64,000 nt of DNA from Raillietiella orientalis (taxonomy: Eukaryota). Location of the stretch: NCBI GenBank assembly GCA_036172245.1, contig JAYWIR010000015.1:2170001-2234000 (forward strand). The letters are read 5' to 3'. Of this stretch, positions 15,318-49,900 are shown piece after piece (position 1 is the first letter of the stretch; the number at the start of each line of letters is the position of its first letter). The position numbers were made by a program, and so were the translations under genes. The notes under the pieces are model-generated. The model had not been told where the DNA came from, made no database searches, and saw only the letters and a program-made list of their open reading frames with translations.

Positions 15318-16270
15318 TTTCCCATTGCGATGAAGTGCCATTTCTAACGAAAACTTATTGTCAATGCAACGAGCTTCTTATTCATATAATTCTATGCAGT
15401 CAGTTTTTAGTTCGACCATCAGTGATCCCATTCAAAATGATGCGAGACAAGATCCTATTCATCAGTGATCACGCTGGATGAGCTGTAACAAACGTGTATT
15501 TTTTTTTTTTTTTTCACTTTAGGAACAACAAAGTCATATTTACCAGGAAATTACAAATTCCAAGACATCTCACATTCTTTGTTAAAGAACTCGTCGACAC
15601 GTCTCGTGTCCATGAGTTCTTTGTAAAGTAACTTGGGATGCTTTTTATTCAAACATCCAAGCAGCAGAGAATCTGATTACAACTGATATTGTGATCACAA
15701 TTGCATTCTGATCTGGGCATCATCAGAATGATGCTGTTCCATGTTTCACCTCGAAAACACTGGTGAAGTCATTCATTTTCAGCAGATATCAAGCTGAAAA
15801 TTTTCCGAGGTGCCGGAATCGAAGTTTTATTCATTTATGTGGAACCCAACTCTTAATCCATTCAAGCGGAAGCGAGTCCCTTGGTTATAAGAACGCTACT
15901 TTTAATGAGGGATCATAGGAATAAGCTATGATTCGGTTGACTCTCCTAGCTTTTCGTAATTGGGAGGAAATTCATGAAGCTTTGCAGGATCATTTTTCAT
16001 TCAAATGCATGCTTTTATTCTAACAAACAGTATCCGTGCAAGATGAAATAATTTACCAGTGGAAAGTGATGCGACGCTCCCGCCCAAAAGAGTTTGCTTT
16101 TATCTCTACACATCGGGAAGGATGCCTTTCTTCAGCAGTCTCGACATGATGAAATTTGGGAAGCATCTGTGAAATGAAGCAAACAAGGAAGCTGCGAGCA
16201 TGGAAAGTTCGAGAATCATGGAGAATATGAAAAGATCTTCCGTGAGAAATGCTGGAGGTTTTGGTCACCC

Positions 16271-16447
16271 ATATGAACCAACCACTCATTCCTTGTGCGT
16301 TGTTTTCTTTCAACCACCCACCTACAAGAAGAACAGTAGTGAAAGGAAAAGCAGCTTTTTTCGTGCAATGGGAGAAAGAAGGGATAATAATGGATCACCA
16401 TTTCAAAAAAGGGGGATCCCGGAATGAAAATCAGATCCTTTTATCAG
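16271..16447. repeat. Left arm of ~180-bp inverted repeat (partner 17502-17680)
   Basis: cacctacaagaagaacagtagtgaaaggaaaagcagctttt... is the near reverse complement of ...aaaagctgctttccctttcactactgttcttcttgtaggtg near 17590-17630. Similarity extends both ways with scattered mismatches. Confidence 0.9.
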
Positions 16448-17501: not shown

Positions 17502-17680
17502 GCTGATAAAGAGATCTGATTTTTATTTCGGGATCCTCCTTTTTTGAAGTCGTAGCCCATTATTCTCTCTTCTTTCTCCAATTGCACGAAAAAGCTGCTT
17601 TCCCTTTCACTACTGTTCTTCTTGTAGGTGAGTGGTTGAAAGTAAATGGCTCACAAGGAATGGGTGGTGGTGGCCCATAT
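17502..17680. repeat. Right arm of ~180-bp inverted repeat (partner 16271-16447)
   Basis: Reverse complement match to 16271-16447. Confidence 0.9.
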
Positions 17681-17704
17681 TTGTGAATTAGGAAGAAACG
17701 AAGA

Positions 17705-17990
17705 GACACTCCTCAGGGGATACCTACTGAGTGAATAAGGAAGTTCCCCTCCTAAGCGTAAGAAGAAAGGACTCCTTCCTCCGGAGCCTTCCTGTATTCA
17801 TAGGTTGGTCCCTCCCTGGGTACATTCTAGCTTGAGGAGTAACACGCACCCTTGGGCGGCGTGGACAGTGTTAAAAAGCTTCGTGAGCCCTTAGGCGAAC
17901 GTTTCTTGAGTATTTAGCGAACCAGAAAACGAAAACCCGAAAAAAAAAAAAAAGAAAAACAGAAGGAAAACAGCGATACAGAAATATTCA
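17705..17990. repeat. Hairpin-rich dispersed repeat, copy 1 (inverted relative to copies 2 and 3)
   Basis: Reverse complement (gggctcacgaagctttttaacactgtccacgccgcccaagggtg...gggagggaccaacctatgaatacaggaagg) aligns with 35461-35570 (gggctcacaaaactcttttaaccctgtccacgccacccgagggtg...gggagggaaccaccctataaatcc). Confidence 0.85.
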
Positions 17991-18460
17991 AAGGGATTTC
18001 CTGGGCGTTATGAATACGAGCTGGAGCGTATCCAAATAGAGTTAAGATGTGAAGGTTAGAGTGAAAATTGCCCCTGTAGCCATGAGTCAGTGTGAAAATT
18101 AAGGAGAAACTGAATGCACTATTGAACAGAAGAGATTCGCTCAGTATGGGCAATAGAAGAAGTTATCTTTATTTTTTTAATAATCGTGCAACTCGAAAAT
18201 TGCTACAGGAGCACAAAAGAAAAGCAAAGAAAGGAATTCTGGAAATAATTCAGAAGAGGAGCACAAGCGTTTTGCCCAGTGGTCAAACAACGTATCATGA
18301 TTAGCTAGGAGGAAAAAAAGGTGAGGAAACCGTGACGCAAAAACTATCGCATGGTGAAACCAATTTTCGTAAACCTCAGTATCTTCGACACACAAAGATC
18401 GAAAGGCGAGATTCATCTTTAAGATGGCCCAGGAAGTTTTCGCGAGTCCCATTTGTTACC
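17990..18460 (-). mobile_element. Possible decayed LINE C-terminal fragment adjoining repeat copy 1
   Basis: Minus-strand FFCAPVAIFELHDY*KNKDNFFYCPY* resembles a C..C...HFF..CP.Y zinc knuckle. Weak. Confidence 0.3.
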
Positions 18461-21439
18461 GCATCGTGTTCCCCCTCGAGGTCGGTTTGTGCGCCCATAC
18501 GACATCCTGTGGTTCCGGTCATTAGCATCTCGGAATTCTTCCTTGAATTTTGTGTACGTCGATTCCATGGATACGTGGCAATTTTCTTTCCTAGCGACGG
18601 CTCATGCCTGGATGGTGGACCGCCTAGGCAACGGAGAGTAAATCGCAGGCATGAAGGGAACGGGAAAGTCTCTCTCCCACTGTTGTCTTCTCCTTATTGT
18701 CATCACTATTGTCTTTAGTGCTCCACACTGTTACCTTCAGTGCGAGGGCGAACCACAGAGTTGAAGCAAACCACAAAGTAAAAGAACGAAACGCAAGCTT
18801 CGGTATTTCTCTGCTTCCGAAAGCAGTTAAAGACGGGAGCAAGCAAACACGTGAGATTTTTCTGTGAGACCACGGTCCTTTTCGATGCACCTGGTGCGTC
18901 TCTGCACCAACTTTTGAGCGCTTCCCAGGAGGGGGGGAGGGAGCAGCAAGATGAAAACAGAAGAAAACAAAAAGCATTGTCTGACGCCATTCACGCCGCT
19001 CCCGCCATGCGGGAGGTGTCAACGCGCCCTTCGAAGAGTCCGGACGGAAAGCCTGAGCGTGGTGACAAATGGGGGCTGGATGTGGCAATGTCTCCCTACA
19101 CTGGGGTCTTTTCTGCCGTCAGGGTCACGGGCGTGTCAGGAGACGCCCGAGGCTGCCAAACTGTTCGTCCGAAGCAGAGTTGCTTTGGAAAAAAAACAGT
19201 AGTGGGATCTATTGATATATATATTTTTAGCAATTGCAATTAAGGATGGAATGCTGATTTAAAATTATTGTTTTTCATTGTTCTCATGTATTTAATTGTT
19301 GTGCGCAAAATTATACATCAACGGTTAATGTGGTTTCGTTGAAAATAGTTATTAATGGAAACTGCGTAGCTTCAGAGAAAATTGCACCTGGCATCTCGTG
19401 TGCCATTTACAACAATGCGTTTGAGGGGGCTTTCATTTGTGACACCGGAAGATGGGGATGTAGGATATGAGTCGACGTGAAGAAAAAAACTCTGTAACAC
19501 TGTCGCGAGGCGTAACGCATCGGTCCAATCGTGACGGCAGCTTCCGCTTTCCGGCAACAAGAGTTGCCAGCATTCGGGCGCGTGAGGGGCGCTCCGAGAG
19601 AGAGTGCTTCCGGAGGAGACTCCCGTCCGCATGATTTGGTTATTGTTTTTCGATTTCTTCCCCTCCCCCTTCTCCACCCACCGGTGTACGGTGGGATCTC
19701 GGGCGAATTCAGGATGCTCTCCAGCCTTCGTAGCCTCTAGCTCGCCTGTCTCGAGATGCTGCGCGACAGTGACCGCCGTGAAGGTGGCACCCCTCTGGCT
19801 CCTGCTTCCCCGTCTTGGCTCCCTGCATCCTTCTCCTGGTACTGGTAGTGGCTCTCGCAAAAGCACGGCCTCCTTCGGCACGTCCCCTTCCTCGCTTCAG
19901 GTTTCCTCTGTTCCGGGTTTTCGCTTCCCAGGGTCCCCGTGACCGAATTCCAACCGGAGCCATGGCAACGGCGCGAGCCTTTTTCTGGTGTCCTTGAACC
20001 GCCACGCCGAGCGCGGTCCCGGTTCCTGAAGCCTGCCCCGCACTACACCACTCCTCCTCACGTCATCCTGACGCAAGAAGGTGCGTCATCCTCATTCACG
20101 CTGATTCGCTTGTCGACTGCGTGCTTCCCTCCCATTCGCTGACGCTCTTAGCTCTTCGCGCTCCCAGAGAAATGGGCGGTGAATGCTCGCTCCTCCGACC
20201 ATGGCGTGGACCTGAGCTCCTGTGGTCCTCTTTCTCCTCTGATGGGAGAGCCGACGGGAGAGCGAGAGCCACCGCGGCCGTCATCGTTTTCCGAGAGCGT
20301 GGCTCGGCGCCGCGGGCGAAGGCACTCCTGTCGCCGCCTAGAGTGAATGGGTGGTGGGTTCGAAACCCGGCTGCGGCAAGTTCATCGCTCCGAGAGACGG
20401 AAAATCCCCACCTTGGCGGAAACGGCGGGGAAACTGCGGGCGTGTCATCCTGGTCGCCCTCTCGTCCATCAGCATCCTCTGGCCATCGTCCAGTTCCCGT
20501 CGGATCCCAGCAGAGGAAGAAAATGGTGCCCAAGACCCGGAAGAAATCCGGGACGCCGTGCTTGAAGGCGGGACAACACTGAGCGCATGTTCTCGTCATC
20601 CCCCACTGGAATTAGAAGTGGCTGGAGAAGGACCCACCCCCCTTCCCCCTTCCCCTCACCCCTTTCTTGCTTGCGAGTATACAACCTCGTGCGCGCGCGC
20701 GCCCACGAAAGACACTCCCTCGCCCTTCCCTCCCCCCCACTTGAGCCGCTCGCTCCAGAAGAGATCGCGATCGTTGTCGCCTTTCCTCCTCTTGGTGTCC
20801 TCCGGTCTTCCCAGAGTGGATGACGCTAGGGAGAGGCTCTGAGGAGGAGGAAGGGAGCCTCCGCCAGGTGCCCGCAAGCGTTCTGGAGGTCTCCGAGAGC
20901 CACTGATGTTGCTGCGGGTTCCCCTCCCCTGTTCCTGCTCGGACGGCCGAGGCATCGGCAGCGGAGCCAGACGAGTTTCCACGAGTCCCGTTCAGTGAAT
21001 GGGAGTGGGAGCAAGCAGGGTCGCAGTGCACCGCTGACGGCCCCTGGCGCGCGCTGCGACACCGGGGACGGCGGCAGCCGCTCGAGTCGCCGAAAGGAAG
21101 GGACATGCAGGGTGTCTTGCTGTTCCTCGCGTCGCGGGCGCGGACAGACCCGCGCATGCGCAGCAGCGCGCGCTCGCCTTCGCCAACACCGAGCACAACA
21201 ATGCAGCTGCCCCCTTTTTCTCTCCGATGGTCTGACTCGTCGTTTTGCAGAGCGGCATTGTTGAGTGGCGGCGGCGGTGGCGACCACGAACGTGCTTTCT
21301 ACCCCGGCCCGTGCTGACCTCGAGCTCCCTCCTCCTCCTCCTCCTCCTCCTCTTCGGACCCGATCCTGCAAGGCGGCGCCCTCCTCCACCACCACCACCA
21401 CCCGTCCACCAAGAGGGGGTTCTTAACGAGAGGGAGGCG

Positions 21440-22741
21440 ATGATGGTGCCCCCCCCTCGTGGAAGGAGTCCCACATTCGCGTGGGTGGCCTTCGGGGGCG
21501 CTGCGGCGCTCCTGCTGGCGCTGGTGCTGCCTCTGCGCTCCACTGCGAGTGAGGACGTCCCCATCCTCCTCCCCCGGGGGTCCGACCCGAAGAACTGTCC
21601 CCTCATCTCTGGCCTGCTTAACGCGTCTGACCTGTTCCGGGAGGACGGCGGCCCCGGGCGTGGCAGCGGGTCGGCGTCGCTGCCCTGGCTGGTGAGCATC
21701 GTGCGGCGGGAGGGCGGCCGGAGGACCTTCTGCACGGGGTTGGTGGTGCGGCCGCTATGGGTGGCCGTCTCGGGGAAGGGGTGCGCGGGGGACGCCTCCG
21801 GTGGCACAGGTGCCCAGCTGTCGGTGATGCACTTCTCTCCTCGCGGGAGGGCGACGCGCCGCCGGGTGCTGTACTCGTGCGCGCGGCCCTGGGAGGACCG
21901 CTTCCCGGTGACGCTCCTCAAGCTGGACGGCCCGCTCCCCAAGCCGGGCGGCATCGAGCGACCTTGCTCCCCAGGGGCCGGCACGGACCTCTTTGATAAG
22001 GTGGCAGCCCACGGCTACAGCTTCTGCGATGCGGGCCGCCTGCGGCTCTTCGTGGTCCCGCTGAGAGCTATCGAGAAGGACCCCAGGTTCTGGGACGGCA
22101 GCTACATCTCCGCCTCCCCTGCGTCCTCCTCCTCCTCCCAGCACATGCCGGGCGACGAGGACGACGACCCGCTCGACGACCGGGGCGACACAGTGACGTT
22201 GCACCCGCTTCCTGGGTTCGCGGCGCTGCCCTCCGGCTTGAAAGGGGGTCCCCTGGTGCTCCTCCGCTCCCCGAGCCTCCCCAGCAGGCGGCGCCGGCAG
22301 CACTGCTTGTTCGGCTTCCTGGGCGAGACCGGCTCGTTCGTGCCGCACGTCAGGGGCATCAGAGTGACTCCTGACCTGGCCGCGTGGATGCGAGGGGTGA
22401 CGACTGAAGGGTACGGAGGCTGCAGGGACCCAGCCGCCCGCCGCGGGGGTGCACAGGACGACGCCTTCTGGAGGCTGGCGCTTGCGGCGCTGCTGTTCGC
22501 CTCTGTCTGCGCCTGCGCCTCCTTCCTGGTCCGCCGCATCCACAGAGAGAAGCTGAGGGTTCCCGGCGCAGCGGGTGGGAAGAGTCGGACCTCCGAAAAG
22601 GGGCCCGATCCTGGCCCGGGGAGGGCCACCCGGCGGGCGGCCAGAGGATCCTCCCCCGTGGAAAACAGGAAGCAGAGGGGCGCAGGACGAGCGCGGGAAG
22701 AAGCGGTCGGCAGGCAGCCCCCGAGGGCGGCGTCCTTCTGA
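21440..22741 (+). CDS. Membrane-anchored trypsin-like serine protease homolog (S1 fold, predicted inactive), 433 aa from ATG 21440
   Basis: N-terminal hydrophobic signal (AWVAFGGAAALLLALVLPL). S1A motifs in order: LPWLVSI, FCTGLVVRPLWVAVSGKGC, PVTLLKLDGPL, ERPC, SGLKGGPLV, LFGFL, IRVTPDLAAWM. C-terminal TM (FWRLALAALLFASVCACASFLV) followed by basic residues. Uninterrupted reading frame. Confidence 0.75.
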   Translation: MMVPPPRGRSPTFAWVAFGGAAALLLALVLPLRSTASEDVPILLPRGSDPKNCPLISGLLNASDLFREDGGPGRGSGSASLPWLVSIVRREGGRRTFCTGLVVRPLWVAVSGKGCAGDASGGTGAQLSVMHFSPRGRATRRRVLYSCARPWEDRFPVTLLKLDGPLPKPGGIERPCSPGAGTDLFDKVAAHGYSFCDAGRLRLFVVPLRAIEKDPRFWDGSYISASPASSSSSQHMPGDEDDDPLDDRGDTVTLHPLPGFAALPSGLKGGPLVLLRSPSLPSRRRRQHCLFGFLGETGSFVPHVRGIRVTPDLAAWMRGVTTEGYGGCRDPAARRGGAQDDAFWRLALAALLFASVCACASFLVRRIHREKLRVPGAAGGKSRTSEKGPDPGPGRATRRAARGSSPVENRKQRGAGRAREEAVGRQPPRAASF

Positions 22742-31900: not shown

Positions 31901-34900
31901 CAATCTGTATGGATGAGCTCAAACGAAGGATCACCTTTCTCCTTTGAACCCTTGTCCTTCCTGCTGTCCTTCTTTGCAAAGAGCCCTGAGCCATGCGGCA
32001 CCTTGTCTTTCAACAAAGCACTCTTCCTTTCGCCTTCGCTCGAATCAGCCGCAATGTGGAACACTGAAAGAGAGGACGGTACGAGATGAATGAATGGGTT
32101 CGCGATCAGATACAAGCACACTCGCAGCGTCAGGAAGGCAGAAAGAGAGAGAGAGAAAGGGTAGGGAGAGGAAGTGAACATGTGGTTGCCCTGTAAGGTA
32201 CTACTCCAAGGGATGCACCACCACCTACGCTGCATTAGCAAAGATATCGGTTTTTTTTTTCTTTCTATCTTTTTTTAGAAAGAAGAGAAAGTGGCGACCC
32301 CACGAGGAGATGTTTGCTCTGGACCGAGTGGAGTGATGGCACCTCGATTCATCTTTGCTACTTTCCACGTCCTTTCAGCTCTTTTTTTCTGGTTCGCCAA
32401 GTACTCAGGAAACCTCTGCTTCACCCCATGGGGACGTCGGTGCGGCTCGATAGCGCTGCCACGTGGAGGGTTTACAAGGCTTTTGCTCTCACGCTCGCCC
32501 AATGTGTGTACGTGGGGTGGAGACCCCCAAGGGTGTCCATTCCCAAGTCGCGGCTAGTCGACGGGGCATCTGGCCGCGAGCGGGCCCTACCGATGCGCAC
32601 CCGAAGCCAGAGCCATCCCGACGTCATCTTGCGGGGGGACTCGAGACTCACGGCGCTCCCCAACTCGGCTTCGATCCTCTACGGGAGGATTCGAACTAGA
32701 GGCACTCGGACACTGCGCGCGGACGTCGTGGCCGCCAATGCGGGGAGTTTTTCTCTTGTACCGTTGCGAAGTTCCCGAGTGGCGATTGGATTGCACCGAC
32801 GCGAGTTTTTCTGGTCTTTCCATCGCAACGAAAGCGAAATTTCACGTCCTTTCCCCTCCTCCCGTTTATCGCAGCGGCTCCCAGGCAGAGCTAAGGAGGG
32901 ATGGGTCCTGACAGGAGGAAGCAGACGGGAAGCGGCAAATCGAGAGAATGCGAGTGCTGAATGTCGATGCCACGCTCTGCTCCCCCGGGTTCTGTGTGGC
33001 GCGCGAGCTTGTTTGGCACCCGTTCCTCCCTCCTCCTCTCCACCTGGATGCTCCTCACTTGGACACGTGAGAGCACGTGAGATGACTCAAGTGCTGCATC
33101 ATTTGCGAGACCACCACTTCTTTCCGGCTGCTTGCTTTCGAGGAACTCGGAGGCATCCAATTTACCTTTCTTTCTGTTATCTAATGCTTGCTGCCACAGC
33201 AAGGATACTTTGCTCTGGGAAGCTGTCAAACTCCAACTGTTGCGCAGCACCCGGGCAACCAAGCTGAGTCTGTTTGTCTTGCACGGTTTTTCGGCTGGTG
33301 AATCTGAAACAGGAGGAGGCGGAGGAAGAGTTTCTCAGGGGATTCCCGACCCACGTTTGCTTCCAAGCTCAAGCACGCGAACCTGGAACACCACCGCAGC
33401 CAGCATCTTCCGAGCACATGGCAACGACAGGCAGGAAGACAACGCCTTGTCCTTCCACGCAGCTGCGAACGTGAGAACCGTCGTCCTCCACCTTCAGCTC
33501 GAAGCAAACTTTCGGGTCGCTGGTCGCTACCAAGATGCTGACCGTGCATTTCTCCTTCGCTTCCCTACACTCACAAGTGTGGAGCAGAAATTCTCTGGAA
33601 CGATGGGTGGCCAGAATAAGCGAGCAAGTCTCAATGCAAAGTGAAACTTTCTTCTGCGCTTTGAGCGTGGCGGCCGGATTAGGACCGTGATTTGGGCCGC
33701 TCGTTCTCCAATCGATCCTCAGAGAAAGCCTCGAAAGACTCACGAGTTGCGTGTGCACAACCGAGCAGCGAGGGGAATCGGCTTGCGGAAGCCAGGAGGT
33801 TCATCAATGGCTTTCATGGAGCATCTGCCATCATCATTCGTTCGGATGCTGTGGCAAACATCCACTCCAGTTTCCAGAACTGGATTCAAGGAGTAGCCCT
33901 GAGAATCACGGAGGACCGCATATGGGAGAGAGAAATCGCCTCCCTCAGGGATCGGCCACTCAGGGAAGGAAGGTCCAGACTAGGAAAAGCGCCCGTGGCA
34001 GCTTTTCGACCGGGCGCTTTTCTTGCGAGAGACCGAGGCGCGGAAACTCCCCGAATGGAGGCTTCCTCTACTGTCCCTCCTTTCCCCACCCCACCCCACT
34101 TTCCCGATCTTTCATTTCTTTCTTTTGTATCTCGTCTATCGTTCCCCTTCCTTCCTCCTCGCCCGTTTCACGTTCGTTTCCGTAATGGCAAGGGACCACA
34201 GGAGGGAAACATGCAGACTGGGGCGGCTGCCTCTCCATGTTCGATCGGTGGGGGAGAACCACTTGACTGACCGACCCACTAGGCAGCAAACAAGCCCTTC
34301 AATTGTTTCGGGATCCTTTCCGCCGTTACGGAGCAACTCTTTCTCCGTGTCGCCAAGGTATCATGGCAGTCTCCTGATTCTGTGCGTTGCAATTTTGAAT
34401 GTATCTTCCAGCTCAATTCCCGGACATGATTCGAAATCCTTGGTGGGAAGGCGGGTTCTCGAATCCAGGTCTAGCGACTAGGCCTGCCGACGACCAGAGC
34501 TGCCGCGATCCCTCATACGCCTACGGCGACGGGAACCTGAGGGAACAGTTTCGCCGTAGTGCATGTCCGAGGATAGGTGGACTGCATGTTCAAGTCTCTT
34601 TTCACCGCCACAGGATGTCGGTCGTGGCAAGGATGGTCTTCGCCACGACGTGCCGGTATTCTGGGTAGCGGAAGAAGCGAGAGACCAAGACTGCTCTGGT
34701 CGCTGATTCCACCTACGAATCTCTCGAGTTCCCGCGGAGGAGACTCGAATCCCCGCGGGTCAAAAATCCACGCGTCGCAGCGGCGCAGCAGGATTTGGTT
34801 TTGACCGCCTTTTCTATCTTTTTCTGGTTCTCCTAGTGACGATGGGGATGCGGAGTTCACGAGATTGAAATCCTACGTTCTCTGGAGTTTCCCGCCACCT

Positions 34901-37900
34901 CCCGCACCTTTTGTTATGTAGTGGAAAGCCATGCATCAGTTGGCAGATGAATGGAGATGTCCTTGAAGATCTTACGAGAGTGGGTAGTGCAAAACAGTTA
35001 CCACCTAATGGGAAACCTCTCTTGCGTGCACAGAATCTTCGAACCATCTTCCGTTGGCACATCCTTTATTAAGCGGATTGTGCGCCATCGGAAAAGCTGC
35101 ATGTCCGCAGAAACTGTCAAGTGAAAACCACGAGCAATCTGAGGAAACTCCGGGCAGATTGATCGCATTGTCTGCAGACGCAAGCACGTTTCCACGGAGA
35201 GGTTTGCATTCCTCTCTACAAGGTGGTAGGTAAAGCCGTAAGGCTCCTCAATGCACCAGTTTCCTCCTTTGTTTGTTTTTTTAGAAGACCAGTAGCGACC
35301 TCACGGGTAGATCGCTACTACTGAGGACTAGGATGATGGGAGTACCTTGGGGTTCTCCTGTTCCTCTGTTTTCCTTCCAGTTTTTTTTCCGTTTCGGATT
35401 TTCCTTTTTTTTTTTTTTTTAGTTCTCAAGGACTACGGAAGAACAGTTTGCCCCCTGAAGGGGCTCACAAAACTCTTTTAACCCTGTCCACGCCACCCGA
35501 GGGTGCATCTAGTAACTTTTCAAGTTAGGGGATACCCCGGGAGGGAACCACCCTATAAATCCAAAAAGGACTCCGAAGAAAGAAGTCCGTTCCTTTCACG
35601 ATTGGGAGGGAGCCTGAAGAGAACCTCTGCCTTATCCTCTACAGAAAGACTCCCGGAAAGGATCCGCTCCTGAAATCCCTTTTCCGGAGGGAACCCGCAA
35701 GGGAGCCGCCGCTCCTTGTTTTACTCCTCCGAAGAGGACCCCGAAGGGACGCCTCTAAATTTCTCTGGAGGGCGCTCCCCGAAGGGAGCAACGAGCTTCT
35801 TCACACTCTGGAGAGGCAACCCCCGAGGGGTATCAACCAGCCCATAGTGAGCGACGTCCATTCCCTTCCTTATTCAAGCACAAACCAAGCGTTTGGATGA
35901 AGGCAAGACGGGATCAAGTGCATGCAGCGTGGAACAAGCAGCCAAGGCGATGTTGCCCGGGAACAGCTCCGTTGCTGCACACTCGTGATAGCGATCGCGG
36001 TGTATTCTCTGCTGCCCGGAATGCTCATTACCAAGGGCGCAGATCGTGTCACGTCTTTGAATGTCCACCCGATTCACTTCACTTTGAGTGACGGAGAGGT
36101 TCGTCCATGAGCGCGCATGAGCACAGAGCAGCCAAGAAGCGCGGACAGCACTAGCGAAAAGCAGAACGTAGCTGCCCTACTCCAACCCACGGTTTGCAAA
36201 GGAGACGAAGGGAATGAGGGAGGAATCCTTGTTGAACCTGTGCATGTGGCAGCACAGATAAGGAACGAATGTGAGGGAAGTGAGTGAGGGGCAAGGAGTG
36301 AAGGTGACTCTTTTACTCGAGGCTCTCACAGAACGAACCGACCAAGACTCCCGAGCCTAGAAGAACAAGCAGAGAAAAAAAAAAGATACAGACGAAAAAA
36401 TTGGAGGAGCAGACTCAGAAAAGTCTGCAACGCTTCTTGACAACTTGCCCTACACTGGTATAAAGATTGTCCTACCGAATGGTTTCCTCTGAAGAGTGAC
36501 TGATCTAACATGACCGGCTTCTCAAAAGTCCACTCTGAAGCCAGACCAACCAACAACTACTCCGTCTCCTTTTTTCTCCATATTTGATCTTCACGTAGAG
36601 AAGTAAGGGGGAATGTTTTCCAGCACCAACACTGACGAAGATGAGCAAGCAAGTCCAAATCCACGGAGGAGATCAGGTTTGAGTTTTCACAAGACCAAGA
36701 ACCCGCGAGGGCCGTCTGCAAATGGCTACCAGCCCAACTTTAGTGCTCTGAGCGTTCAGGTGCCACCTGCTGTGGGCCAGACGGGAATGCACAACTGGCA
36801 ACTCTTCTCGATTCTTCTCTCCATGGCTCACAGTCCCCGGAAAACTCGATCTCCAGCGGAGTACGCAATGCACTCTTCGGCGGGAGAAGACCGATGTCGA
36901 ATTCACATCGTTGGATAGGAATGACGAAGAAAGGCCACACAGACGGAAAGAATATCGCAGAATGCATTCACGGGTGGCCGCCGGTCTTACCCGTTCGGCA
37001 AGTTGGCACTTGGTTCATAATCTTTCCACAGGTAAAAACACGATAACAAACTGAGAAATTGAAACAAATCCTGACTGACACACGTGACAAGATCTCTGTA
37101 CTCCGAGAAGGATGCAAACTCAAAGTAAGATCCCTGACTCTTTAGCACATCATCTTTATGCATCGAGAATTCGGACACTCTTTAGCTTCTTAGTTAGTCC
37201 GCGCATCAGCTCTGGTGTCGACAGAAACCAAGATGGTCTGTAGTGCGTGGGTGCTTGCCAGTCACATCATAGTCGTGTCTTTGCTTTCAGAATCGAAAGA
37301 AGAAAGAAAAAAAAAGTCTGTATACTGATATTCTAGCAAACTGCTCTCCACAGCTACTGCTAGAGCTTTGAAATTAGGGACCATAGTGTCCATGTCGTAT
37401 AAACGTGTGTTTATATATATATATATACATACATACACGTTTATCCAACCCATTTACCTCACCCTACGTCATTGTAAAGTTGACGATGGGTAACGGGGAA
37501 AAGTCTGTTCCCATTTGTCTTTTTGTTGCGAGCTGCACAACAGTGGAAGAATATTGGATTGAAGACACGATTTGCATCGAAAGGGCAGAGGGGAAACTCG
37601 GTCTTGCGGAAGGAATGTGCAGGGATTTCATGATACTTACTTGAGGAAGACATTGTCGTCTGTCTCATGATAGTACCAAGGCAGTATCCACATCTGGATG
37701 TCCGTGCCGAGGGACGCGTCGGTGCACTCTTTGAAATACGATACTGGTAAATGATAAGCGGAGAAACATCTGAGTGTCCACTTCGTTCCGTAGCTCTCGT
37801 AGTTGTAGGAAGAGAACCCACTGATGATGCTGTATCCAAGCTTGGGAGGCATCCGTCGCTTTTTCCAGAAGATTTCGGTGTTGCCTACTCACCTGATTTT

Positions 37901-43900: not shown

Positions 43901-46900
43901 CTCGAAAGACTAGCCGACTCGAGTGCATACCCGTGAGGAGTAACCATTCGTTTCGTCTTCGTTCCGAACGCGTGGATTTCCAGCAAGCTTTGATCGTCGT
44001 ACGGCTCATCCCAGTAATAGTGCTGAACTCGCAGAGTCCCAGGCTTGGACACCAGCAGCTGCAAAGAGCACGAGAAAATGGAATGGAATGGTCCCCAATG
44101 AAATCGACCTGAGCGTCCGCAGGAGACATTTTCGGTTTCCTCATGGTGGAAAACGAAACGAACACTTCTCGTTCCTCCAAATCATCGCTGACTGTTTTTT
44201 CGTGAATAGGCACAGATAATTCTGACGCATGTGCGAGCGCTTGGTATGCAAACTTTGCAGGGGGCTGCATTTCTCACGAGCATTTCATCTTAATCTAAAT
44301 GCTCAAAAAAGGATACACAGAAAGAGTGGTTGCGTTTCAGGAGAAAACAGACAGGGAACGCTTTCCATTCCGTTCATATTGTGGTTCTTTCTGTCCAGAC
44401 TTGCAATTTTCTCTTTCTTTGGAGTGTTTACATGTGACTTCAGATCGGTTGCTTTCAAGTGGTATTTGTGGGCTGAGGCTTTGTGATACAAGATCAATGA
44501 GCTACGAGAAAAGAACAGAATGCGACATCAGCGACTTGGAAATGTGTGTGCATGTGCGTATGTAACAAGGCATGTTTATGTATATTATATAAACAAAAAT
44601 ATCGAATCGATGTGTGGAAGGTCGAATGGCATTGAGTGAAAAGATGGGGATGAGGAACGAGTAGGGCAATTGAAATCATTCCTTACGAGAGCACGTTTCG
44701 GATCAGTGTTGTGTGATTTACGATACCATTCTTTCGTACCCCTATGTGCTGTGAAATCTGCCTTTCACGGTATAATGAGCTGATTAGAGACCTGAATAAT
44801 TAGAATTTCATAATAATACAAACTCTGTTTTGGAATTGCGAAATTTTTTTTTTTTCCATTCCTCATGATCACTTTGTTCATGTGTTTCCTAACGTGTTTA
44901 CTGGGAAAGGAAAGGATGTGCACTGAAGAAGTACCTTACAAACAAGAACCTCCTTTGGGGGTTCTTTTTTCTTCTGTCTTGGCTCTTTAACACTGTTCCA
45001 CGCCACCCGCCGAAGGGCCATCCCAGGAGGGGGGTCCGCCCTATGAATCCAGGAAGGACTCGGAGTCCGGTTCCTCTCACGCCTAAGCAGGGATCCTCCT
45101 GGGAGGGGGGGATCTCATCTCCCACGCTGATTGTCTCAGAAGAAGAGCCCCGAAGGAAATCCCCTTCCTCATTCTCTCCGAAGGGACACCCCCGGGAGGG
45201 GTAGGGGTTTCATATTTCATCTTCTCCTCAGGGAACCCGGAAAGGATCTGCTAGTAGGAATGTCTTCTCCGGAGGGAACCCGCAAGAGGAACCGTTCCTG
45301 TTCACTCCTCTGAAGAGAACCCCGAAGGGACGCTTCCGAAATTCAGAAGGGACTCTGCAGCCTCCCTCAGGGGGATCGCTCTCGTTTGCTTCCTTGCACT
45401 CTCTAGAGAGGTGACGACTCGGAGGGTCCCCACCGCAGCAGGGGAGTCCGCTCCTTTAAACAACTGGAGAGGTGCCTGTGAAAGCTCCTGCTCCATCTTG
45501 AAAGCGGAGGGGTCCCCCCGGTGAGTAGGGGTCCGCTCTCCGTTGCACGACTGGAGGGGAAACTCCCACTCCTTGATTCCTGGAAGGACCCGAAGGTCGA
45601 CTTCCATTGTTCTGGCCTTAATCGGAGGCATCCGGTTTTAACCGCTACCGGTGCCGCGCCCGAATGTTTGTAGGCCAACCAGGGCCATCTTGCAGGAGGA
45701 ACTCGGGACCCAATGACGCAATGGCGTCAGTTTCTGCCGTATTCGAATCTACGACGCATGGTGCCACGCGAGGAAACCACAACCAAAATGCCTCCGACGC
45801 AGGCACAAACAAGAACTGGAAAGTTGTCTGGTTGCTAAACGAAACTGAGTGAACAATAATGATTAATCATAGGCTTGGGATCTTGGTTCGGATTCCGGAA
45901 CTGGATCGACTCTTCAGCCCAACTTAACGACTCCGACGAAAACATGCTGGAAGAAACAAAAAAATGGACAGTGATTTACCCATCATTCCGAAAATAGCAG
46001 CTCCATGGACGATATCGTTTCATCCCATGAGAGTGGTCTTCTTGATACAGATTTTTCCATAGAGGAAAGAAACCTTGGATTATTTTCCATCGATCTTGCA
46101 GTTTCCATCATTCCCAAGCGCGACCGAATCTGGTCGGTAGCTTTTCGATACCTTTCCGACCTCAACTGTGTCAGGAAGCTTGAGAGAACGAAAGCCTCCC
46201 ATCAGAGTCGAGGTCTTGCAGTCGAGATGCAGAAGCATCAAACTTGACTGTGAGCCCACAAAGTTCCAATGTGAAAGTTCCAAATGATGAGAACAGAACT
46301 CTGACAGCTAATTCTACCAATCTAGTAATATGTAACATATAAGGGATCGTTTTTGCACATCTTTCAATGTGTCTTGCTCCTCTCTTCATCATCATTGCAT
46401 TCCGCAAACGAACTCGGCAAGAGTACCTTCTTGAATGCGTTTCGCCCTGCTGCCCACTGTTTCGTCAAAATGCGACCGTTATTGAGTGTTGTTACACTTT
46501 TCTTTTACTGCGTAAGCCAAGATGGGGAAACCTAAGAGTGTGTTTCCTAAGAGTGTATTTTTCAACCATAAACCATCAAGTGAACTGGCCCATACACTTT
46601 CGAACGGCAGCTTCTCGCTCTTATAGGGTAGTTCCTTGGGTCCAGACACAGCCATCTATCGTTTTTGGAAAATGCTGAATGGAAATATCCAAGAGCATCC
46701 TTTATGAGGAAACAAATATTCTTTCAACCGCTAGCAGCAGTTTCGCTGGGCTTTTGTTCTTCGTTTCTTCCTTTTTTTGAGAACTAGAGAGAGTACCGAT
46801 TGGATACACCTCTTTCAGAACAAGGAGGAGGAATTTTTTTGTCCCTCCCATCCCGATAGGGTGTAAATAATTTGTTGGCCAGACTGAAAAAACTCGAAAG

Positions 46901-49900
46901 GACGCGCTGCAGTGACAACAGCTAGAACCGAACCGCTCTGCTCGGTTTTCCGTGCTGGAAGGTGGGTTCAGTTCGATGACTAACGAATTTCTTTGAAAGT
47001 TTGGTGTGATGAAACGATCCAAGTAACAACATAAACAACCCATGCTTTCTTGTCTAAGTCCCCCTAGGACAGGGCTGTTTCTTGATCGGTTGCGAGCGAC
47101 TCGGAATGTTGCATACGTCAGCTTCGCGCATGCTTTCCAGACAGACAACGCTTTCACACGAAACAGACGGAGGAGAGTTTGACTGCTTCATATGTCTGCA
47201 GTTCACGAAACAATCTGTTTTAATAGTTCTATTAAACAGCATGAATTAATACTAAGCCAACCTTTCGTGAGAGTTTGCTATTTTAAAACTTGTGCACAAG
47301 GTATGCAAGATTATTTCACCTCGCATCGTTCTTCAACAACTTACTAATTTATCTAAACAAAAGCATTATCTTCTGATAAATCGAACAGGTGTCTTCGTGT
47401 GTGTGCATATTCACTATGATGAATGAATTCTTTCCAGATGAAAGAGAGAGAGAGAAAGAAAGAAGAGCTCTCTCACGTTACTACATGATGAACGTGCTAC
47501 TCATCTTACTGCAAGGAATCCTTCAAGTTTTCCAAGCTGACCCACTGAGAAAGTGCCATGTTTTGTGTTTTTACGACTTCGGAGACCTTTTCCTTCATGT
47601 TTTTAGCAATGACTTCATATTTCCTCTTCCTGGGCATGCCGTTTTCATCGGCACGGTTCATTATTGATCCGAATTTCCTTTCCTGAAATGTCCATCGGGT
47701 TGTCCTTGCAAAATTTGCGGAAGGGAGGAAGCAGTTGTAAGAGTTGTTAAAATAGAGTCAGTGGATGGAAAGGAGATTCGGGAGAACTTACGGGAATTTT
47801 TTTCTTATCTAGAAGAATGAGCTGTTCGTGAGGGACCAACATTGATGTTGGCCAACTCATCAGCAGGAGAGACTGTATTTCAATCATCTGAATCGGCACC
47901 TCTGGACATCCCACCAAAACGGGAGAGAAAGGGTACTTTCAGCTTTCTTCAGGAAAGCCTTTCACATGTTTTCACAAAAATGCATTTTCTGATTCCCTCT
48001 CACAACATTCTGATACCTTTCGCTCTCCTGATTTCCTGCCACGGATGCGCTGGTTCCTTCTGGGCTGCTGGACTCAGAGGGATTCGCCTCAGACGAGACA
48101 ACAGCATGAAGTGAGGGAGGGAAGCGAACTTCGAGAGATTTCTGAACAAGGTCTAAGGTGGGAGGAAAGCAGGAAGGAAATTGCTGATCACGACAGGTGA
48201 ATGTCAGTTCATTTTCGTTTGTCAAATCAAATTTAATCTACTCTTGCTTTAGGAAAGGAAACAAAATGATATTTCATTTTGTGCTGAACAGCAAGCCACC
48301 AATCGTCATTCTTCCATCTTCTTCGATCCTCTGTTTACTCTGAGGTTTTCATCCGCTCAAAATGAGGAAATGATTATCTCATTATCTGTGCTTTGGTTTC
48401 CCTCACTTGCAATGATTATTCTGTGGCTACTTTAGCTTCGGGTTTAGTTTTCTGTTTTTTGTTCTTAGGGAATTTTATTTCCCTTCTTGGTTTTTGAGTA
48501 TTCATCGGAGTGCTACGAAGTATGAATGTATCCAATTTAGTTTTGTTTGTTTGTGTTAATAGTTCCATTAAGCAGCATGAATTAATACTAAGCCAACCTT
48601 TCGTGAGAGTTTGCTATTTTAAAACTTGTGCACAAGGTATGCAAGATTATTTCCCCTTGCATCGTTCTTCAACAACTTACTAATTTATCTGAACAAAAGC
48701 ATTATCTTCTGATAAATCGATTGTAAGTTGGCTTCTTTGATTAACAGAACGAACGGATGTGAATCTCTTTTTGTAGAATAGCGCGTCAGTATCCAGGAAA
48801 GACTGGCTGCAAGCAAAAGTTGCCCGTAGATTCTGGTCTGAGAGTATTCTCACCCTGCTCGCACAGAGTCAGATGGTAATGATCCACGAAGAGGATTCCG
48901 CGTGGAACTCCGCGGAAAACAAGTTTTCGCTACCGCACATCATTTCTGATGCTTGGGTTTCAGAATCTTCCAGGTGCTTCTTGTTTCTTTTCGGAATACG
49001 ATCGAGCTTGCCAAGTTCTTGAGCACAACCTCTCTTTACCGCTCGGGCTGCAATTCTGTTGCCCGTAAACGCATCCAGGAGTAAAGCAGGCATTTGCAAT
49101 AGAAGAAAGCGATAATGGATTTAGGAGCAATCATTCCGAATGACAGCCCAGATGCAAGGAGACTCCAGCCCGTTCAGTCATTTTCGTGAACCGCTTCGTA
49201 ACCAACTGATGTTTTGCGAACTCATCCGCTATTATTATCGCCCTGAAACTCAGGAGGGAGAACGTATTTGCCAAAGTGGAATGAATGAGTCAAAATCACT
49301 GCTTATCATGTTTCCCTAGTAGTAGAATTTCCGATGAAACATTGCGGATTTCCATCGGCACGGTGCAGTAATCTTTTGCTTCCGTATTAGCTGCAAAGTC
49401 CGATTCTTCTCCTGGAGCAACATCGCCGCTGTTGCAAACAAGATAACCTCCTGCCACATTTATTACTGATGATTGGAATCGGAATCCTGCAACCGAGTCC
49501 GCATTGTAGTTGGAATCAATTTTTTTTTTTAATGTTTTAGAAATCATACGGTTGTGAGAGAAGCTCCGAAAACTGCTAACCAGTAAGTCCTTCATTTGGG
49601 ACTTTTTCAAGGAACTAACAATTTTCGAAATCAAGAGTGCCAAAGTAGAGCCAGTTACTGAACTATCCGTAAACAGTCGACAAGCACAAGGGTTGTTCTT
49701 GACCTTAGGATGGAGACCATTGGAAATGCGGTGCTCTCATCCGACACTATCCACACTTGCCACGAGAAATTCCACTCCGGTTAACAGTAATTAAAATCAA
49801 AGAATCGTCCGTTTGTGATTTTGATTATCGAAAATGTAAACTCAAATGTTCCTCGGAAATTCTCAAGAAAAAAGCAGTGTCGCTCCAAGTATTCGTTAAA

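Follow-up and report, generated by a model that had tools for sequence, protein, structure and literature searches.

A long tRNA-derived SINE of Raillietiella orientalis grows by hairpin units, and its stems appear to be selected in the active lineage

Introduction

The repeat family studied in this paper is best compared with the tRNA-derived SINEs, with which it shares a tRNA-related head, a non-coding body, an A tail, a high copy number, and subfamilies set apart by internal duplications (PMC3531059). SINEBase describes 175 families, whose consensus sequences span 75–662 nt; it defines a SINE as shorter than 700 bp, and uses a working limit of less than 1 kb (PMC3531059). The present family is longer than any of these, at 873–1,094 nt. 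That is, the consensuses of its subfamilies B, C1 and C2 fall below 1 kb but above 700 bp, and those of A1 and A2 exceed both limits. In the other respects by which SINEBase recognizes a SINE, the family is non-autonomous, carries a simple-repeat 3' tail and is flanked by TSDs. Where SINEBase asks for at least 100 interspersed copies, the young heads alone number 316; and where it requires an identity of 60% or more to a tRNA, 5S or 7SL RNA across a minimum of 60 nt, the head shows 62–64% to tRNA-Arg(CCT) over 76 columns.

The body of the element has a precedent in the quasi-oligomeric CHRS SINEs which, as SINEBase outlines them, likewise carry a degenerate motif about ten times and have variants that differ in unit number (PMC3531059). 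The CHRS unit is about 20 nt long, whereas the unit here is a bulged hairpin of ~41 nt with conserved stems; the comparison is one of descriptions only. In the plant element SB1, too, the tRNA fold has been replaced by bulged stem-loops, and a constraint on RNA structure has been proposed; SB1 has three stem-loops, compared with the roughly 20–24 that we predict (PMC2408557). Finally, retropseudogenes and SINEs mobilized by L1 include tailless copies that are 5'-intact and 3'-truncated, have TSDs and end in A-rich single-stranded regions, and 5' inversions of the twin-priming type occur as well (PMC5322556, PMC2912911). In those sources, tailless copies are a minority and are specific to therians. 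Here the 3' end is missing from 15 of 26 young copies with a head, in an animal only distantly related to mammals. Quasi-oligomeric SINE bodies (CHRS) and a proposed structural constraint on SINE RNAs (PMC2408557) are already known. What is unusual is to find together a length above 1 kb, about 20–24 hairpins, lengthening in hairpin modules, and internal priming as a frequent event.

The present family bears on two general questions, why the RNAs of tRNA-derived SINEs keep stem-loops and why SINEs stay short. It provides a five-step lineage within one genome, with dead copies as a built-in neutral control. Along this lineage the element comes to exceed 1 kb, its stems evolve at a lower rate than its linkers, and specific base pairs can be named. 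It would also provide a case outside mammals of internal priming as a main copying route. The family is not a new class of RNA.

Results

Copies in the window

We refer to the 64,000-nt stretch of contig JAYWIR010000015.1 analysed here as the window. A first-pass annotation of the window had described three diverged copies of a repeat, at 17705–17990, 35345–35860 and 44940–45610. Comparison within the window confirms that these are homologous, with copy 1 inverted relative to copies 2 and 3. All three are genuine, and the count was too low: a fourth copy lies at 32518–32744, and there are thousands genome-wide. The extents of copies 2 and 3 also had to be revised, to 35268–35854 and 44950–45804, as the earlier bounds had stopped short of the element's two informative ends.

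Copy 2 (35268..35854, minus strand) is a 5'-truncated member of the old subfamily B that covers positions 315–872 of the 873-nt consensus at 86% identity, plus an A-rich 3' tail (35268..35282). Upstream of this tail, all on the minus strand, are the 3'-terminal hairpin (35291..35319), after which TTT(T) and then poly(A) follow in the family; an internal A-rich tract (approximately 35376..35421); and an array of degenerate ~41-nt hairpin units (approximately 35500..35854). The flanks of copy 2 show no clear TSD. Copy 3 (44950..45804, minus strand) belongs to subfamily C, with 89% identity to the C2 consensus; it has an intact head and an internal deletion, and is 3'-truncated just beyond the A-rich tract. 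Its tRNA-related head (45729..45804, minus strand) contains an A-box-like segment and a mutated B-box-like segment, the latter at about 45739–45750. A perfect 12-bp TSD flanks the copy (44938..44949 and 45805..45816).

Copy 1 (17692..18001, plus strand) is a subfamily B fragment, consensus 487–821 at 85% identity, in which the UNCG hairpins have all gone; copy 4 (32518..32744, minus strand) is a subfamily B head fragment, consensus 2–238 at 79%. Copies 1, 2 and 4 thus belong to the old subfamily B, and copy 3 to C. All four would be dead insertions undergoing neutral decay.

Identity of the family

We have little doubt that the family is a long, tRNA-derived, non-autonomous retroposon, or SINE. 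The element begins with a tRNA-like head, which is followed by an array of degenerate hairpin units of ~41 nt and then by an A-rich tract and a terminal hairpin; it closes with TTT(T) and poly(A), and its TSDs measure 9–15 bp. Loci anchored on the tail bear the terminal hairpin, T run and poly(A) at their 3' end. Of the options that the first-pass annotation had left open, a mobile element or non-coding RNA with a structured single-stranded phase, the SINE was correct, and the structured phase is one of RNA; the tails and TSDs that it had recommended looking for are both present. A structured retroelement UTR finds no support, given that no RT ORF is attached to the copies; the longest chance ATG ORF has 128–174 aa, in a GC-rich consensus.

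The genome that we searched comprises 210 Mb in 491 contigs; its CCT-gamma protein reaches at most 68% identity to those of insects, other arthropods and vertebrates in the protein collection searched. With copies 2 and 3 as queries, the initial candidates ran into the thousands for each, and 40 were scored. In forty 10-kb stretches, placed at round coordinates on the larger contigs, 27 family fragments made up 2.9% of the DNA, which extrapolates to about 14,000 fragments and about 3% of the genome. The flanks of copies are unrelated to one another, so the family is interspersed rather than tandem. An LTR or DIRS element was considered and rejected, as there is neither an internal coding region nor a shared flank.

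One sharp 5' end is common to 20 of 20 aligned copy-3-like copies. Starting at base 1, the element aligns colinearly over 76 nt with a tRNA-Arg(CCT) of the genome itself, with 47–49 matches in 76 columns. Of the 62 tRNA hits, 57 were compared, and this tRNA scores highest; a tRNA-His head was rejected on its score of 50, against 60 for Arg(CCT). Because other tRNAs score close to tRNA-Arg(CCT), reaching 66–68% identity at lower scores, the parent of the head is uncertain. The head itself is predicted to refold into a single long hairpin, with loss of the tRNA fold. Given the A- and B-box-like segments and the terminal T run, we propose that the SINE may be transcribed by Pol III. TTTT is lacking from the sense strand, an absence that is not significant, being found in 38–39% of shuffles as well.

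A metagenome scan with a 23-nt motif returned 0 matches, and in the literature we found no account of this family or of a SINE body rich in UNCG, with the proviso that the supplementary consensus table of SINEBase could contain a relative.

Subfamilies and growth

The sampled DNA contains 82 head-bearing copies, of which 73 were long enough for a tree and 69 were grouped by eye. The tree of the 73 is ladder-like, with five subfamilies: B (28 copies, consensus 873 nt, 85% identity of copies to consensus), C1 (7 copies, 963 nt, 92%), C2 (8 copies, 967 nt, 94%), A1 (21 copies, 1,079 nt, 96%) and A2 (5 copies, 1,094 nt, 98%). Each consensus is thus built from 5–28 copies, grouped by eye from one tree.

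Along the ladder the element has lengthened from 873 to 1,094 nt by insertion and by duplication of hairpin units, and the body shows periodicity peaks at 40–44 and 79–83 nt. Between B and A1 there are about 100 substitutions in about 660 aligned sites, in addition to large insertions. About 20–24 hairpins are predicted per element, and the local-fold z-score, computed from folds without the special tetraloop energy, falls from −3.6 in the oldest subfamily to −9.7 in the youngest.

Mobilization

Of 40 young copies, 14 lie between TSDs with 9 or more matching bases, compared with 3% when flanks are swapped; the corresponding values for old copies are 3 of 27 and 1.9%. Ten of the 14 young-copy TSDs start with AA, the leading A's overlapping the poly(A) tail. 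Among 26 head-bearing A copies, 11 reach full length; 12 stop within the internal A-rich tract and 3 before it, and several of the 3'-truncated A copies have TSDs at the point of truncation. Genome-wide, a 29-nt motif of the young head has 316 matches and a 20-nt motif of the tail has 156; controls have 0. The excess of heads, together with the ends in the A-rich tract, fits internal priming, by analogy with the tailless copies made by L1, for which internal priming has been described (PMC5322556). Two insertions (L189 and L208) have an inverted 5' part of the type ascribed to twin priming, the mechanism treated in PMC2912911.

Open endonuclease-plus-RT LINEs are plentiful in the genome. In an RVT_1 search, the 30 of 150 matches that were examined all belong to one LINE group, 70–99% alike. 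From their domain order, we provisionally take these LINEs to be L1/Tx1-like. Because of the poly(A) tail, the TSDs starting with A, the internal priming and the 5' inversions, mobilization of the SINE by L1/Tx1-type LINEs is likely, on circumstantial grounds. The LINE partner is inferred, since the SINE tail is not significantly like the five LINE 3' ends compared with it (p 0.17–0.88) and a LINE lies upstream of the tail at 0 of 36 tail-anchored loci.

Several observations concern the LINEs themselves or their junctions. At L121–L124 and L129 (contigs C71, C150, C53 and C1), open endonuclease-plus-RT LINEs stand in head-to-tail arrays, whose diverged members share an end composed of an AATAAA-like signal, a hairpin and a few A's. 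At L127:5973–6060 a LINE 3' end abuts an old SINE copy that runs the opposite way, as one of 10 distinct LINE 3' junctions, and eight SINE loci (L032, L033, L156–L160 and L163) lie within or beside decayed L1-like LINE sequence. At the junctions of L023 and L145:2274–2333, short inverted duplications (of flank in L023, of head in L145) replace a plain TSD. L128 and L133 are RT elements with zinc-finger-like and C-terminal nuclease-like motifs that have a common insertion site; their 3' flank looks like antisense 28S rDNA, and we presume them to be R2/R5-like insertions in reverse orientation.

UNCG loops and CpG decay

The first-pass annotation had singled out C(UNCG)G tetraloops, and their excess is real. 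On the minus strand, counting stems of at least 3 bp, copy 2 has 4 where 0.17 are expected and copy 3 has 4 where 0.24 are expected; none of 500 dinucleotide shuffles matched the count in either copy. The opposite strand has 0 in copy 2 and 1 in copy 3, copy 1 has 0, and elsewhere in the window, over 62 kb, there are 5 and 4 on the two strands. These motifs are not independent of one another, however, because they are placed in a duplicated ~41-nt unit.

It does not follow from the excess that the repeat is an array of functional UNCG tetraloops, as had been suggested: in the predicted folding ensemble, the motifs mostly lie inside larger stems. At a probability above 0.5, one motif out of 5 is predicted to form its tetraloop in copy 2 and two out of 7 in copy 3, and each consensus has 1–2 such motifs among its 10–11. 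Many of the motifs belong to the 3' side of a larger, bulged hairpin, whose first bases are GGAG or GAAG and whose last are CTCC or CTTC. The three hairpins quoted in the first-pass annotation are all found, on the minus strand. The c(UUCG)g hairpin at 35774..35789 is the sole one among the 5 copy-2 motifs that is predicted to form (p 0.87). The motif at 35725..35738 is private to copy 2, being UUCA in all five consensuses, and has a predicted p of 0.15. The copy-3 hairpin at 45587..45598 is UNCG in all five subfamily consensuses.

One loop remains UNCG through all five subfamilies, changing from UCCG to UUCG, and another UUCG loop is lost in A2, the youngest subfamily, as its stem lengthens. 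The excess would then be mostly a by-product of the duplicated unit, with one conserved UNCG tetraloop.

The TGAA and TGGA loops had been attributed to CpG decay. We reject this origin, because CpG sites mutate at just 1.1–1.5 times the rate of other C/G sites; the TGAA loop of CTCTGAAGAG, moreover, is common to all five subfamily consensuses. The weakness of CpG decay in the repeat suggests little methylation in the germline.

Conservation of stems in the active lineage

Because dead copies should decay blindly, we looked for selection on RNA structure in the changes between subfamily consensuses (B–C1, C1–A1 and A1–A2). Structure was taken from one consensus, and alignment was by sequence alone. 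We excluded the head, the A-rich tract and the tail from this test, together with blocks that were short or poor and the two outermost bases at either edge of a block. Expected counts came from permuting the substitutions among sites of equal base class and CpG status inside 150-nt windows. The results of the pair tests, and the loop probabilities given above, are unchanged when the sequences are refolded with U letters, which includes the special tetraloop energy.

Fewer pairs are broken between consensuses than expected: 19 versus 30.0 (p 0.002) for the older structure, and 13 versus 28.6 (0 of 600 permutations) for the younger one. Private mutations, by comparison, break 112 pairs versus 115 expected and 74 versus 84, and unfiltered differences between copies and consensus show a mild deficit, with a ratio of 0.83–0.95. 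Between consensuses, stems change at 0.044–0.048 and linkers at 0.076–0.080, so that stems evolve at about 60% of the linker rate, whereas between copies and their own consensus the stem and linker rates in three subfamilies are 0.040 and 0.040, 0.066 and 0.064, and 0.147 and 0.152. Taken singly, decayed copies fold only slightly more stably than shuffled sequences (z −2.0 and −1.2).

Compensatory changes are present as well. Together with the motif excess, they supply both of the observations on which the first-pass annotation had staked its reading. Double compensatory changes are few in the body (2 versus 0.9 expected, p 0.23; 3 versus 0.9, p 0.07), and over the whole element from B to A1 they number 5 versus 1.5 (p 0.017). 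We tabulated six candidate pairs and followed the flips copy by copy; four are clear. The lower stem of the copy-3 hairpin at 45587..45598 is the site of one such path, in which the pair is A-U in 13 of 17 B copies, G-U in 5 of 7 C1 copies and G-C in 17 of 21 A1 copies. Changes that form G-U pairs lean to the strand of the tRNA head in the masters (19:9, versus 80:102 for private mutations; Fisher p 0.025, from folds without the special tetraloop energy).

Selection thus probably acts on RNA stems in the active lineage, and it is the stems, not the UNCG loops, that look selected in the active masters. Masters with broken stems would amplify less well, and the candidate reasons for this are RNA stability, compaction, or binding of a protein that reads structure. 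As a whole, we hold with considerable confidence that the family is a tRNA-derived SINE that grew by hairpin units, whose stems were kept in active masters and whose dead copies are neutral.

Discussion

The same SINE could carry its hairpins as passengers, through tandem duplication of a palindromic unit. The conservation of stems would then come from mutation (slippage, hairpin-templated repair, or loop hot spots) or from noise in consensus and alignment. We think this unlikely, while giving it real weight. The body is indeed periodic, at both the unit length and its double, and double changes are indeed few. The effect is also partly symmetric between strands, since the antisense fold shows a stem deficit too (18 versus 27, and 21 versus 33). 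Loops outpace stems in young copies as well, at 0.067 versus 0.040; but the stem deficit persists when apical loops are excluded (19 versus 27.8 broken pairs, p 0.01; 13 versus 26.9, 0 of 1,000). Two further results speak against mutation as the source. Copies, which experience the same DNA-level processes, show equal rates in stems and linkers; and the G-U intermediate described above is the majority state of a whole subfamily, standing between a majority of AT in B and a majority of GC in A1.

If, as we prefer, the stems are kept by selection, one may ask what they are for. A doubtful suggestion is that the duplicated unit works as a functional module of a multivalent RNA scaffold, which would either bind a protein of the host or of a LINE or protect the RNA against decay. 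An equally speculative extension is that added units let a Pol III retroposon lineage pass the SINE size ceiling and fold ever more. Were the module reading true, selection on RNA structure would be recorded naturally in the dated ladder of subfamilies. In its boldest form the master would be a Pol III RNA used by the host.

Related to this last form is the improbable alternative that the masters are a host-maintained Pol III ncRNA gene, a BC1- or 7SK-like scaffold, of which the dispersed copies are retropseudogenes. A single ladder-like lineage with conserved stems would be expected of such a gene, as would many tailless copies, which cellular RNAs also produce (PMC5322556). Against it are the fast change of the lineage from B to A1 documented above, with its large insertions, a copy number at the level of SINEs, and the lack of any Rfam match; nothing points to a host function.

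It is very improbable that the family is a self-cleaving or circular RNA element, such as a hammerhead retrozyme or the viroid-like RNA that the first-pass annotation had entertained. The hairpins are dense, and C1, A1, A2 and copy 3 each have a CUGANGA...GAAA string in antisense. This string is missing from B, however, lies opposite to the tRNA head, and leaves stem II unclosed by eye. The Rfam search gave nothing at gathering score in the window; it gave 8 weak matches in 4 loci, none of them a ribozyme, 7 of the 8 falling on a local inverted duplication in L145. The fixed 5' end, poly(A) and TSDs are instead hallmarks of a retroposon, and there are no permuted or LTR-like repeats.

A Helitron- or MITE-like DNA element with a phase of single-stranded DNA and cGNAg mini-hairpins, also raised earlier, is barely credible: the young consensus has some excess of GNRA-looped stems in antisense (8 versus 2.6 expected) and a 3'-terminal hairpin is present, but the tRNA head, poly(A), TSDs of variable length, and tailless and 5'-inverted copies are those of a retroposon, terminal inverted repeats are absent, and the DNA folding energy is similar on the two strands.

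Additional features of the window

Just left of copy 1 is an inverted-repeat pair (16265–16447 and 17503–17686) of 185 nt, 85% alike and 1.05 kb apart, which looks like a MITE or a decayed TIR element. A direct repeat of 169 nt and 96% identity (47216–47384 and 48552–48720), with its members 1,336 bp apart, could be a pair of short LTRs or a local duplication. On the plus strand, 21236–22741 is a GC-rich frame of 501 codons, in which we found no Pfam family and for which we found no homolog; by eye, it resembles a trypsin-like domain between hydrophobic segments. Across the window (1–64000), GC content swings from 30% to 66% within 10 kb.
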